DNA of 1,122 nucleotides, from sequence record OR846335.1, one strand, 5' to 3'. This stretch comes from a phage. The notes beneath the pieces are model-generated. The model did no database searches and was not told the DNA's origin. It was given only the letters and a program-made list of their open reading frames with translations. Below, one piece after another: positions 1-1,122 of this stretch. Position 1 is the stretch's first letter; each line of letters opens with the position of its first letter. The translations under genes were made by a program, and so were the position numbers.

Positions 1-1053
1 GCGTACTTTCGCCAGGCTTTGCCACGGTGAAACGTCGTTGCCGTGAACCATCCGCTCGGTGAGATAATAGAGCGTGTAGTCAGCGGAAATGCCGATAACG
101 CTCATGCTCATCACCAGCGTCATCAGGTGTAATTCACCGAAAATCAATAAAGTGGCGACCGTTCCCGCCAGCGCGCCGATGCCGATGGAAATCACGCAAA
201 GCAGCAACGGGCGTAAAGAGCGGAACACCGCCACAGTCAGCAATATCACCCCCAGCAGCGTAGCCACGCCCAGGGTGGAGATATCCTGCTTCGCCTGTTG
301 GCTGGCGTAATCGCTGTAAAACACCGTGCCGCGCGAGAGCAACTGTGCCTGCGGGTAACGCGTTTTCAGATCCTTTTCCAGCGTATTCAGGGTCGTGATC
401 AGCTGGTGGGTTTGCTGCATATCAAACGACGATCCCGCCAGTTCGCCGTGCAGCAGATACCAGTAGTTGCCCTGGGGATCCTGCGTCACCAGCCAACCGT
501 CCATCAGCCGCAAACGCTGGCCGTTTTTCGCCATTGCCAGCTGCGAGCCGCGCATTAACATCAGCGGATCGTTTTGCAGCTCCTTGCCGCTTACGCCGGA
601 GAATGCGGAATAAAGCTGGGAGAGGATCCACTGTGCCTGCGCTCCGCCGCCGTTTTGCAGGCGGGCGCGGGTGTTGGGGTCAATCAGGCCGTTGCGATGC
701 TGCCAGAAAAACGCTCCCCACGCCTGCTGGCTGGCGGCATCCATTGGCCCTTTAACGTCGCCGAGCGCAGCGGATTTTTGCAGCAGCGTCAGCCACTCCT
801 GAGCGACCAAAGGATTAGCCTCTTTACCGGGGCTGACCAGCCACACCAGTTGGCGGTCAAGACGCTGCATAAAGCCGTCATTCAGCGCCGGAGGAATATC
901 GCCCATCGTCTGTTTGGGTAACATAGCCAGCACGCTACTGTTCAGCCGTGATTGCGGCAGCAGGATCAGCAACGCCACCGCCATGACCAGGCAGACTAGC
1001 CCCCATAACAGCGCGGGGCGTTTACTGGGCGGCAAAACGTTGGCGTTCGTCAT
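1..1053 (-). CDS. MMPL / RND-superfamily inner-membrane exporter, N-terminal 351 codons; partial, the 3' end continues beyond window position 1
   Basis: Hand translation of the minus strand from ATG (plus 1051-1053) gives 351 codons with no stop down to position 1; the nearest upstream in-frame stop is TGA at plus 1063-1065. Protein begins MTNANVLPPSKRPALLWGLVCLVMAVALLILLPQS (basic N-terminus then hydrophobic helix), continues with a ~220-aa mostly hydrophilic domain, then ISTLGVATLLGVILLTVAVF / RSLRP / LLLCVISIGIGALAGTVATLLIF / GELH / LMTLVMSMSVIGISADYTLYYL. This layout (TM1, large periplasmic loop, TM2-TM4 with a G-x-x-x-D-Y helix) is the established topology of RND/MMPL transporters. Family assignment rests on topology and motif recognition, not a database search. 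Confidence 0.85.
   Translation of the reverse strand, partial: MTNANVLPPSKRPALLWGLVCLVMAVALLILLPQSRLNSSVLAMLPKQTMGDIPPALNDGFMQRLDRQLVWLVSPGKEANPLVAQEWLTLLQKSAALGDVKGPMDAASQQAWGAFFWQHRNGLIDPNTRARLQNGGGAQAQWILSQLYSAFSGVSGKELQNDPLMLMRGSQLAMAKNGQRLRLMDGWLVTQDPQGNYWYLLHGELAGSSFDMQQTHQLITTLNTLEKDLKTRYPQAQLLSRGTVFYSDYASQQAKQDISTLGVATLLGVILLTVAVFRSLRPLLLCVISIGIGALAGTVATLLIFGELHLMTLVMSMSVIGISADYTLYYLTERMVHGNDVSPWQSLAKVR
61..282 (-). other. TM2-TM4 bundle of the exporter (residues ~258-331), including the G-I-S-A-D-Y motif (Asp codon at plus 79-81, Tyr at 76-78)
   Basis: Three hydrophobic helices are separated by very short loops (RSLRP and GELH). The last carries VIGISADYTLYYL, which resembles the conserved TM4 Asp-Tyr proton-relay motif described for MmpL3/HpnN-type MMPL transporters and the TM4 acidic residues of RND pumps. 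Confidence 0.6.
283..951 (-). other. Large soluble loop between TM1 and TM2 (residues ~35-257), predicted periplasmic porter-type domain
   Basis: About 220 residues of mixed, mostly hydrophilic sequence with several Trp and no Cys, flanked by hydrophobic helices. By analogy with RND/MMPL architecture this is the first periplasmic domain. Its boundaries are estimated by eye. Confidence 0.5.
955..1014 (-). other. Predicted TM1 / signal-anchor helix of the exporter (residues ~14-33, ALLWGLVCLVMAVALLILLP), preceded by basic residues K11 and R12
   Basis: An uninterrupted run of about 20 hydrophobic residues follows Lys-Arg in the hand translation, consistent with the positive-inside rule. No lipobox is present (residues before the Cys are G-L-V, not [LVI][ASTVI][GAS]). 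Confidence 0.6.
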
Positions 1054-1122
1054 CGGTCAGTTGCGCTGGCGTCAGTTGATGTTGGGTAAGAGCAATATCG
1101 GTGCGATCGCCCTGTTTATCAT
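1022..1122 (-). CDS. 3' end of the upstream minus-strand gene (C-terminal 32 codons plus TAA stop); product unknown; partial, the 5' end is beyond window position 1122
   Basis: Minus-strand frame from plus 1120 down to 1025 is open and reads DKQGDRTDIALTQHQLTPAQLTDDERQRFAAQ, ending at TAA (plus 1022-1024). It is in a different frame from the exporter and overlaps the exporter start by 32 nt. Only 32 residues are visible, so no product call is possible; the call relies on the open frame, same-strand operon-like arrangement and enterobacterial-type codon usage. Confidence 0.5.
   Translation of the reverse strand, partial: DKQGDRTDIALTQHQLTPAQLTDDERQRFAAQ

Follow-up and report, generated by a model that had tools for sequence, protein, structure and literature searches.

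Introduction

An aryl-polyene (APE) cluster of Escherichia coli CFT073 was reportedly treated by Cimermancic et al. in 2014. The product of such a cluster has since been described as an APE-lipid, and its transporter ApeM has been placed in an 'APPE' family of RND proteins (bioRxiv 10.1101/2020.12.19.423268). ApeM, ApeL and ApeN were proposed to act as a dedicated export system, and in an apeM deletion mutant APE-related metabolites were undetected, yet a low level of yellow pigment was seen in the extract (PMC8253772). In the mechanism put forward in the literature, ApeM, an RND/MMPL-type protein of the inner membrane, would extract the finished aryl-polyene lipid and would pass it to ApeL (LolA-like) and ApeN (LolB-like) for transfer to the outer membrane, where the pigment would protect against oxidative stress and promote biofilm formation.

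According to De Lay and Cronan (2006), as cited in PMC8253772, AcpT activates both ACPs of the cluster; acpT encodes the phosphopantetheinyl transferase that belongs to the cluster. A variable block adjoining acpT was described in the same study (De Lay & Cronan 2006, as cited in PMC8253772 and PMC4103896). Here, we analysed a 1,122-nt stretch of DNA (hereafter the window), which is part of this published and experimentally studied cluster, the biology of which is already known. We consider it very probable that the window carries apeM and apeL of the APE cluster as an O157-like copy from the acpT site, with a gene-specific GC3, and that the patchiness of the cluster among E. coli strains arose by deletion and relocation.

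Genes carried by the window

Two genes of the E. coli APE cluster are represented in the window, apeM by its start and apeL by its end, both on the minus strand. The sole long open frame, in frame 0 of the reverse complement, is the 5′ part of apeM (positions 1..1053, minus strand; codons 1-351 of 772), which opens with an ATG at 1053-1051 and leaves the window at position 1. Alignments with orthologues begin at residue 1, which supports this ATG as the apeM start. The matching region bears the RefSeq annotation 'MMPL family transporter', in agreement with an apeM product that serves the aryl-polyene cluster as its inner-membrane transporter of the MMPL/RND family. The 3′ end of apeL (positions 1022..1122, minus strand) contributes 32 codons and a stop, reading ...DKQGDRTDIALTQHQLTPAQLTDDERQRFAAQ* in frame 2 of the reverse complement rather than in the frame of apeM, and in RefSeq a 'LolA family protein' ends at window position 1022 (position 21022 of the O157 locus). 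The apeL product is a LolA-like periplasmic carrier, the full-length O157 ApeL scoring above the Pfam threshold for both LolA (46.1 bits) and LolA_3 (43.3 bits). By the coordinates from the open reading frames and RefSeq, the two genes overlap by 32 nt (positions 1022..1053, minus strand), suggesting co-transcription and coupled translation. The frame-0 peptide upstream of apeM (MINRAIAPILLLPNIN*) was rejected as a candidate for the tail of the gene before apeM, since the RefSeq annotation together with frame 2 gives ...ERQRFAAQ* as the apeL tail.

The apeM of the window corresponds to c1191/ApeM of CFT073, and the 18-gene cluster apeA-apeR around the O157 match follows the published CFT073 c1186-c1204 table in order and in predicted function (PMC8253772). 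CFT073 ApeM (c1191) and ApeL (c1192) share with the window the gene itself, the 18-gene order, 96.9% DNA identity and the predicted roles of RND transporter and LolA-like carrier (Johnston et al. 2021, PMC8253772), and this CFT073 cluster has been shown to produce the pigment. The two differ in their site: the CFT073 cluster sits in a mosaic island with unrelated flanks, whereas the nearest relatives of the window have it between yhhT and acpT. An APE cluster has been defined by the joint presence of the ketosynthases apeO and apeR, the chain-length factor apeC, the ACPs apeE and apeF, the dehydratases apeI and apeP, the ketoreductase apeQ and the transporter apeM (bioRxiv 10.1101/2020.12.19.423268). 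The O157 locus with the 99.7% copy of the window has the complete core set in order, the window itself comprising apeM and apeL only.

ApeM as a predicted RND-type lipid transporter

Full-length O157 ApeM scored 33.2 bits against Pfam MMPL, over the cut-off of 20.5, so that the full-length orthologue passes the threshold for the MMPL/HAE3-like part of the RND superfamily, while the 351-aa fragment in the window scored 18.9 bits, under the same cut-off. A Kyte-Doolittle scan, used as the sole measure of topology, returned hydrophobic stretches at residues 11-39, 256-451 (several) and 626-766 (several), separated by hydrophilic stretches at 40-255 and 452-625, a pattern consistent with the pseudo-symmetric RND arrangement of TM1, a large periplasmic loop, TM2-6, TM7, a second loop and TM8-12. 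Within the window, the scan of the full-length protein predicts a first transmembrane helix at residues 11-39 (positions 937..1023, minus strand), followed by a first periplasmic loop domain at residues 40-255 (positions 289..936, minus strand), which is hydrophilic between the hydrophobic segments 11-39 and 256-323. By analogy with the topology of the RND/HpnN family, this loop is predicted to occupy the position of the porter or lipid-handling domain of RND transporters. The hydrophobic segments at residues 256-323 (positions 85..288, minus strand) are the predicted start of the first membrane bundle, TM2-TM4; a match at family level is confined to this part of the window, Pfam MMPL covering residues 251-328 and the HpnN alignment residues 227-421.

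The best PDB match of ApeM was the hopanoid transporter HpnN (5khn, E = 2e-6). HpnN of Burkholderia multivorans resembles ApeM in being its closest solved structure over residues 227-421 and in the HpnN and HAE3 matches from NCBIfam, and the HpnN and HAE3/MMPL branches of the RND superfamily, MmpL3 included, move a specialised lipid from the inner towards the outer membrane, as ApeM is presumed to do. By contrast, the resemblance in sequence is slight and does not extend beyond the first membrane bundle, with 23-27 bits against cut-offs of 350-1400 (BstA 27.1 bits versus 1400, HpnN 23.3 versus 752 and HAE3 26.2 versus 352 for the NCBIfam equivalogs, all of them missed). In addition, ApeM has 772 residues compared with about 880 in HpnN, and it has LolA/LolB-like partners. 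From these comparisons, we infer that ApeM works like the BstA/HpnN/HAE3-type lipid transporters and is a member of none of these families.

Source of the window and patchiness in E. coli

The window is 99.7% identical to E. coli O157:H7/O55:H7 chromosomes, EDL933 included, and the expectation of enterobacterial coding sequence in the sequence-only reading was borne out, the nearest relatives being E. coli of this lineage. An exact match to the window was absent from the complete E. coli genomes; three transitions separate it from the nearest copy, two of which are nonsynonymous (E137G and I273T) and fall at residues that are otherwise invariant. The O157/O55:H7 copy has 3 mismatches to the window and the CFT073 copy has 35 (96.9%), and among the matches listed, all of those with at least 99% identity belong to O157/O55-type genomes. 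Most likely, the window comes from an O157:H7/O55:H7-like strain, in which the cluster would lie between yhhT and acpT; as the window carries no flank, this placement at the acpT site is read from the identity, 99.7% versus 96.9%.

In EDL933, the fatty-acid-synthase-like block adjoining acpT, in so far as De Lay and Cronan (2006) is cited for it, holds the window with 3 point differences only. Of 5426 complete E. coli genomes, 824 (~15%) have the window sequence and with it the 18-gene APE cluster, and 'distant' blastn returned no more divergent E. coli copies beyond these 824 genomes. The EDL933 block has been called 'O-island 138', a name under which no paper was found in the literature searched. 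The adjacent acpT, by contrast, is present in 5426/5426 genomes, and so the earlier hint of an island pointed at a block that is truly variable.

A GC excess at third codon positions

The sequence-only reading had counted about 58% GC by hand (654 G+C in 1122 nt), and the exact count (C 333, G 321, A 238 and T 230) gives 58.29%, with local values of 54-63% along the window and no internal break. The third-position G/C bias that it had asserted is also real, although the strand that carries it, the minus strand, had been left unstated: over the 351 apeM codons, GC1/GC2/GC3 were 0.607/0.416/0.738. The 58% GC arises almost entirely at third codon positions (GC3 74%), GC1 (0.61) and GC2 (0.42) lying inside the range of the neighbouring genes, the GC2 of which is 0.24-0.49, while the GC3 of 0.74 exceeds the sample mean of 0.563. 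Codon usage in this minus-strand frame is rich in CTG (36/59 Leu codons), GCG (15/31 Ala) and CAG (19/27 Gln), the three codons singled out beforehand, and likewise in GGC (18/28 Gly) and ACG (12/19 Thr), with CTG, CAG, GGC and GCG among the most frequent codons.

As background, we used 250 kb from five spaced stretches of one O157 chromosome with a GC of ~50.8%, so that the window, at 58.3%, does exceed the average of an Escherichia-like host, as had been surmised. By our own arithmetic, the excess amounts to ~5 binomial SD over a flat 50.8% background; a fairer null is the spread of real 1122-nt windows in the same 250-kb sample (mean 50.7%, SD 4.8%), in which the window has z = +1.57 and 2.7% of windows are equally GC-rich. 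A GC3 of 0.738 was reached by 0 of the 95 long ORFs (at least 300 codons) of this sample, which had a mean of 0.563 and an SD of 0.075. Closer to the locus, 13% of windows in the 25 kb of core flanks are as GC-rich, and the core neighbours nikC (GC 60.6%, GC3 74.1%), nikD, nikB and zntA match the composition of the window, nikB, nikC and nikD being as GC3-rich.

The GC might follow from the make-up of a membrane protein rich in Leu, Ala and Gly, or from translational selection for optimal codons where expression is high, given that no residues are more frequent than Leu (59), Ala (31) and Gly (28) and that CTG, the favoured Leu codon of E. coli, dominates. However, GC1 and GC2 (0.61/0.42) are close to those of the core neighbours and the excess lies at GC3, and the enriched codons include ACG (12/19 Thr), GCG, CCC and TCC, none of which, to our knowledge, is favoured in highly expressed E. 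coli genes. A related Xenorhabdus cluster, moreover, is silent in laboratory conditions (bioRxiv 10.1101/2020.12.19.423268). Because of the normal GC1/GC2 and the enrichment of ACG, GCG and CCC, we reject amino-acid composition and translational selection as the cause, an account we find scarcely credible.

Deletion and relocation as the probable origin of the patchiness

In the O157 locus, the block lies between the core genes acpT/nikA and yhhT, and hence in the conserved core-genome context that the sequence-only reading had named as evidence against acquisition. Its companion point against acquisition, a host GC equal to that of the window, does not apply (~50.8% versus 58.3%). The marks of mobility that it had proposed to look for were absent: no tRNA gene lies in the 41-kb O157 locus, nor in the 41-kb stretch fetched for the CFT073 locus, and neither within the O157-type block nor next to it does the annotation show an integrase or transposase. 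No pair of direct or inverted repeats encloses the 15-kb block either, and the repeats present are short, scattered in coding sequence and of at most 77% identity, which we treated as chance.

Classical tRNA-linked islands resemble the APE block in their patchy occurrence among strains and in a GC somewhat over the host mean. They differ from it in their mobility features, as the block has no tRNA gene in 41 kb, no integrase or transposase in it or next to it and no direct repeats around it, in its position, which is conserved across genera, and in the empty site, which is scarred rather than intact: the distribution is sporadic, but a relic of apeR stands in the empty site. In composition, the window is in the top 2.7% of windows of the 250-kb sample and its GC3 lies over that of 95/95 long ORFs, while nikB/C/D are equally GC3-rich and the excess is found in 71/71 other hosts.

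Among 73 full-length loci of other enterobacterial species, 44 keep the order yhhT-ape-acpT, and 63 have acpT directly after apeR, one base past its stop codon. The acpT|yhhT junction of K-12-type genomes retains the last 19 nt of apeR (I-K-R-W-P-stop), and the IKRWP-stop C-terminus is conserved in ApeR orthologues of other genera. With these last 19 nt left behind in K-12-type genomes, the empty site is a deletion and not a virgin target. The 34-nt K-12 spacer from the apeR relic to yhhT had no match in the O157 or CFT073 loci. Each genome has one junction type, 570 being acpT|apeR and 4856 K-12-type, which together account for all 5426. A single deletion junction in 4856 genomes of diverse lineages, with retention in some, implies putative recombination within the species of one of the two junction alleles.

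About 254 genomes (824 minus 570), CFT073 and Nissle included, must carry the cluster away from acpT, and the CFT073 left junction is common to 162 of them. CFT073 is homologous to the O157 locus from precisely the apeR stop codon to a point within apeA; beyond this stretch, the flanks are unrelated to O157, with many IS elements and pseudogenes, and the mosaic island is pieced together from IS1/IS21 remnants, AlpA, YfjI and toxin/hemagglutinin pseudogenes. The patchy distribution in E. coli would be mainly the trace of one shared deletion; in addition, the cluster would have moved secondarily into a mosaic island in strains of the CFT073/Nissle type. The 570/4856 partition and the ~254 second-site copies together restate in numbers the 'orphaned AcpT' observation of De Lay and Cronan, as far as that observation is relayed by later papers.

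If the window were itself a secondary, island-borne copy of the CFT073/Nissle type, 'acquired island' would be the right description of it, and both the number of genomes with the cluster off acpT (~254/824, 162 of them with the CFT073 left junction) and the IS1/IS21, AlpA, YfjI and pseudogene mosaic around the CFT073 copy speak for such an origin. It is nevertheless very improbable in view of the 35 mismatches to CFT073 against 3 to the O157/O55:H7 acpT-site copy, and of the O157/O55-type source of every match of at least 99% among those listed.

Recent horizontal transfer into the O157 lineage, the donor being an enterobacterium of higher GC, for instance one like Klebsiella, Enterobacter or Citrobacter, and the 58% GC being the signature of that donor, would fit the restriction of the block to 15% of complete E. 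coli genomes, the GC gradient from block (55.3%) to flanks (52.8%) to sampled genome (50.8%), the 57-65% GC of the Klebsiella, Citrobacter and Enterobacter orthologues and the second location in the CFT073 mosaic island, which shows the cluster to be capable of moving; APE clusters have also been noted on pathogenicity islands (PMC8253772). Yet protein identity to the nearest ApeM outside Escherichia reaches only 86%, ~3% of DNA positions separate the O157 version from that of CFT073, as expected for divergence within a species, and the codon preferences (CTG, CAG, GGC and CGC) are E. coli-like. Furthermore, the O157-type site shows no tRNA, integrase, transposase or bracketing repeats, the same insertion point is used in 63/73 loci of other species, and the relic in the 'empty' site matches the ApeR C-termini of outgroups. 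These observations largely refute a recent gain at the acpT site, which we regard as improbable.

Under deletion and relocation, the block is ancestral at the acpT site and was lost from most E. coli, not gained. The 7 to 8 point GC excess correctly flagged a strain-variable block, and to that extent the island hint was sound; as a sign of acquisition the GC is not supported, and composition by itself would give the wrong evolutionary direction.

GC3 of apeM in other enterobacterial hosts

The orthologous 1053-nt segment has a GC of 56-65% and a GC3 of 67-86% in other species, above the local flank in 71/71 of them. The GC3 of apeM is higher than that of the adjacent acpT in 65 of 67 species (r = 0.71) and than that of yhhT in 42 of 48 (r = 0.63), and the E. 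coli copy of apeM lies at the low end of the family GC. The raised GC is an old trait of apeM across enteric bacteria and not the signature of a fresh import, and GC3 richness would be a stable, gene-specific property of apeM in every enterobacterial host, set over a baseline that tracks the host.

Tentatively, and with little confidence, we raise the idea that a gene-specific force holds the GC3 of apeM ~6-7 points over that of its immediate neighbours. Candidate forces may be recombination-associated biased gene conversion, the cluster being often exchanged, or selection that acts on the mRNA or on insertion into the membrane during translation. The excess is seen in 65/67 species against acpT and in 71/71 against the flanks, a pattern not obviously expected of a decaying foreign signal. 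If true, 'atypical GC' in the APE cluster would be a maintained state rather than an acquisition clock.

As a separate observation, a GC3 excess that persists after long residence departs from the prediction of simple amelioration.

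The window lies in the aryl-polyene cluster

The window contained 333 C, 321 G, 238 A and 230 T, so that G+C amounted to 654/1122 (58.29%), identical to the hand count of 654 (~58%) in the sequence-only reading, and, taken in 200-nt steps, GC ranged from 54% to 63% and showed no internal boundary. Six-frame translation revealed a single long open frame, on the minus strand, which began with an ATG at window 1053–1051 (protein start MTNANVLPPSKRPALLWGLVCLVMAVALL...) and remained open past position 1. The CTG/GCG/CAG-rich, G/C-ending codon usage remarked on earlier was borne out on this reverse strand, where the 351 codons had a GC of 0.607, 0.416 and 0.738 at positions 1, 2 and 3, and CTG (36), CAG (19), GGC (18), ATG (15), GCG (15) and ACG (12) were the most frequent. 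The GC observation is thereby confirmed.

Among 5426 complete E. coli genomes, megablast placed the window in 824, chromosomally in all, with a top identity of 99.7% in O157:H7, O55:H7 and related strains, an Escherichia-like host being one that the sequence-only reading had considered. The annotations under the match were 'MMPL family transporter' and 'LolA family protein'. In the locus of O157 strain FDAARGOS_293 (L001), the window fell inside an 18-gene block, all on one strand, encoding in map order a ketosynthase, FabG2 ketoreductase, ApeP dehydratase, ketosynthase, DUF3261 protein, MMPL transporter, LolA-like protein, thioesterase, glycosyltransferase, FabZ-like dehydratase, acyl-CoA/ACP synthetase, hypothetical protein, two ACPs, lysophospholipid acyltransferase, chain-length factor, methyltransferase and lipoprotein. 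This block corresponds gene for gene to apeR to apeA of CFT073 (c1186–c1204; Johnston et al. 2021, PMC8253772), where ApeM (c1191) is listed as 'RND family transporter' and ApeL (c1192) as 'LolA-like molecular chaperone' (PMC8253772); the window therefore comprises parts of apeM and apeL, and everything identified in it is already described in the literature.

The 5′ part of apeM (codons 1–351 of 772) occupied window 1053–1 on the minus strand, and the 3′ end of apeL (last 32 codons plus stop) lay on the same strand in another frame, the two genes overlapping by 32 nt in different frames (window 1022–1053, minus strand). This overlap, together with the lack of an obvious Shine-Dalgarno motif just upstream of the apeM ATG, suggests translational coupling of apeL and apeM. 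Full-length ApeM scored 33.2 bits against Pfam MMPL (cut-off 20.5) vs 18.9 bits for the window fragment alone, while NCBIfam matches to BstA, HAE3 and HpnN were weak, all far under their cut-offs. The closest solved structure was the hopanoid transporter HpnN (5khn, E = 2e-6), and the topology predicted from hydropathy, with TM1 at residues 11–39, a periplasmic domain at 40–255 and a membrane bundle from 256, is consistent with an RND pattern; ApeM has been placed in an 'aryl polyene pigment extrusion' RND family (bioRxiv 10.1101/2020.12.19.423268).

From the literature, we infer for this sequence a mechanism in which a type II PKS/FAS-like system would make an aryl-polyene carboxylic acid on the carriers ApeE and ApeF, ApeD and ApeJ would then join it to a lipid anchor, and ApeM, with LolA-like ApeL and LolB-like ApeN, would export the product to the outer membrane. 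An apeM deletion mutant yielded no detected APE-related metabolites, though its extract still contained yellow pigment at a low level (PMC8253772), and the Xenorhabdus product is a large APE-lipid (bioRxiv 10.1101/2020.12.19.423268). AcpT, encoded by the gene adjoining the cluster, activates both ACPs, according to citations of De Lay & Cronan 2006.

High GC is a property of apeM across hosts

The expectation that the window would exceed an E. coli host average held against five 50-kb segments spaced along the same O157 chromosome (58.29% vs a pooled 50.8%). In this sample, 1122-nt windows had a mean GC of 50.7% (SD 4.8%), placing the window at z = +1.57, with 2.7% of sampled windows equally GC-rich, and none of 95 ORFs of at least 300 codons reached a GC3 of 0.738 (mean 0.563, SD 0.075, 99th percentile 0.688); GC1 and GC2 of the window were ordinary. 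By E. coli standards, the GC of the window clearly falls in the upper tail, above all at third positions. Its composition is less special locally than genome-wide: 13% of core-flank windows were at or above its GC, and the neighbouring core genes nikC (GC 60.6%, GC3 74.1%), nikB (58.4%, 72.1%), nikD (60.0%, 69.0%) and zntA (GC 58.3%) were similarly rich. The whole ape cluster had 55.3% GC vs 52.8% in 25 kb of flanks, dropping to 46% at the apeA/apeB end.

Amino-acid composition was ruled out as the cause because GC1 and GC2 were normal. Translational selection is unlikely, since ACG, GCG and CCC were enriched and the related cluster in Xenorhabdus stays silent under laboratory conditions (bioRxiv 10.1101/2020.12.19.423268). 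Across 71 other species, the orthologous 1053-nt segment had a GC of 56–65% (mean 61.5%) and a GC3 of 67–86% (mean 77.8%), and in every one of the 71 its GC was above that of the local flank outside the cluster. apeM had the highest mean GC3 of the cluster genes across species (0.767), surpassing adjoining acpT in 65 of 67 species and yhhT in 42 of 48, and its GC3 correlated with both (r = 0.71 and r = 0.63, respectively). The simplest reading is that apeM follows each host's composition with a positive gene-specific offset, the E. coli copy lying near the family's low end, which fits long residence rather than recent import.

The whole neighbourhood of the cluster is high in GC; the core nickel-uptake genes nikR–nikB beside it (L001 8543–12291) have a GC3 level with apeM, and nikA was found beside acpT outside Escherichia only in Superficieibacter and some of the Citrobacter loci. 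Left of the nik operon in O157 is a low-GC block (L001 2054–8344, 42–54%) with hicAB, a class II aldolase, HPr, an FGGY kinase, PTS IIA/IIB/IIC (IIC being a pseudogene) and a GntR regulator, where the K-12 locus (L002) has rhsB (L002 1–365). In composition, this block makes a stronger case than the window for an acquired segment.

The empty acpT site is a deletion scar

acpT was found in all 5426 E. coli genomes vs 824 with the window sequence, and the ape block is thus accessory in E. coli. Of the suggestion that the window might belong to an acquired island, this strain variability stood, while composition proved to be no evidence of acquisition; the tRNA genes, integrases and direct repeats proposed as flanking signs were absent at the O157 site, the 41-kb locus containing no tRNA gene, no integrase or transposase lying in or beside the block, and no repeats bracketing it.

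In K-12, acpT and yhhT are 54 bp apart. Alignment with O157 showed acpT and the next 20 nt (L001 14564–14583) to be common to both, and these contain the last 19 nt of apeR, coding I-K-R-W-P-stop. Because ApeR orthologues in other genera end alike (I(K/Q/R)RWP), and the IKRWP-stop end is part of the cluster also in CFT073, with its unrelated flanks, the K-12 sequence is an apeR relic and the 'empty' site a deletion scar. The 34-nt spacer after the relic (junction at L002 6589–6642) matched nothing in the O157 and CFT073 loci. Junction-specific searches detected acpT|apeR in 570 genomes and the K-12-type scar in 4856, which together divide the 5426 genomes exactly.

When one genome per species was scanned, ApeM homologues (71–98% protein identity) turned up at 80 loci, nearly all in Enterobacterales genera, including Citrobacter, Klebsiella, Enterobacter, Raoultella, Kosakonia, Leclercia, Scandinavium, Atlantibacter, Edwardsiella, Serratia and Pantoea. 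Among 73 full-length loci, acpT lay directly 3′ of apeR in 63, yhhT immediately preceded the cluster in at least 45, and both ends were kept in 44. Only one base separates the apeR stop codon from the acpT ATG in several genera (e.g. TGAtATG; ~16490–16500 in the other-species loci L009–L088), and acpT behaves as a 19th, translationally coupled gene of the operon, effectively the cluster's last. As yhhT-ape-acpT recurs across species, the O157 order is conserved and presumably ancestral for enterobacteria, in agreement with the title of De Lay & Cronan 2006, which has K-12 AcpT orphaned by rearrangement. The comparisons point to a cluster that was present ancestrally and has since been lost widely, some lineages having a separate, relocated copy. 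One typical yhhT-ape-acpT locus (ApeM 80%, YhhT 82% protein identity) came from NZ_JBQPOM010000012.1, labelled Vagococcus sp. WN89Y, a Firmicute, an assembly most likely contaminated or mislabelled.

A second, island-borne copy

Of the 824 genomes with the cluster, only 570 have it at acpT, so ~254 have it elsewhere together with the scar. CFT073 is an example (96.9% identity across the window), its cluster surrounded by IS1 and IS21 remnants, an AlpA regulator, YfjI, an enterotoxin gene and many pseudogenes; the left junction of this type occurred in 162 genomes, including Nissle 1917, and the cluster is thus able to move. Homology between CFT073 and O157 started exactly at the apeR stop codon and stopped inside apeA, with 96.2% identity over the first 9.6 kb (apeR–apeI) vs 89.7% over the last 4.2 kb (apeG–apeA; L001 25168–29329 against the CFT073 locus, L008) and a ~1-kb gap at apeH without blastn alignment (L001 24171–25168 against L008). 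The two cluster types are mosaic, which suggests that a more divergent donor contributed to the apeA end by recombination. With 3 mismatches to the acpT-site version vs 35 to the CFT073 version, the window is most likely the ancestral-site copy.

Relative to every complete E. coli genome searched, the window carried at least three transitions (window 28, 236 and 644), two of them nonsynonymous in apeM (E137G and I273T) at residues that O157, CFT073, Escherichia sp. E1V33 and Citrobacter pasteurii all share. The changes may be private to the strain, result from sequencing errors or mark a mildly altered transporter. In E. coli P393-F10 (NZ_CP076274.1 3381314–3381409), the match was limited to window 1027–1122, over LolA and DUF3261 features, in what appears to be a natural apeM deletion in a cluster otherwise present.
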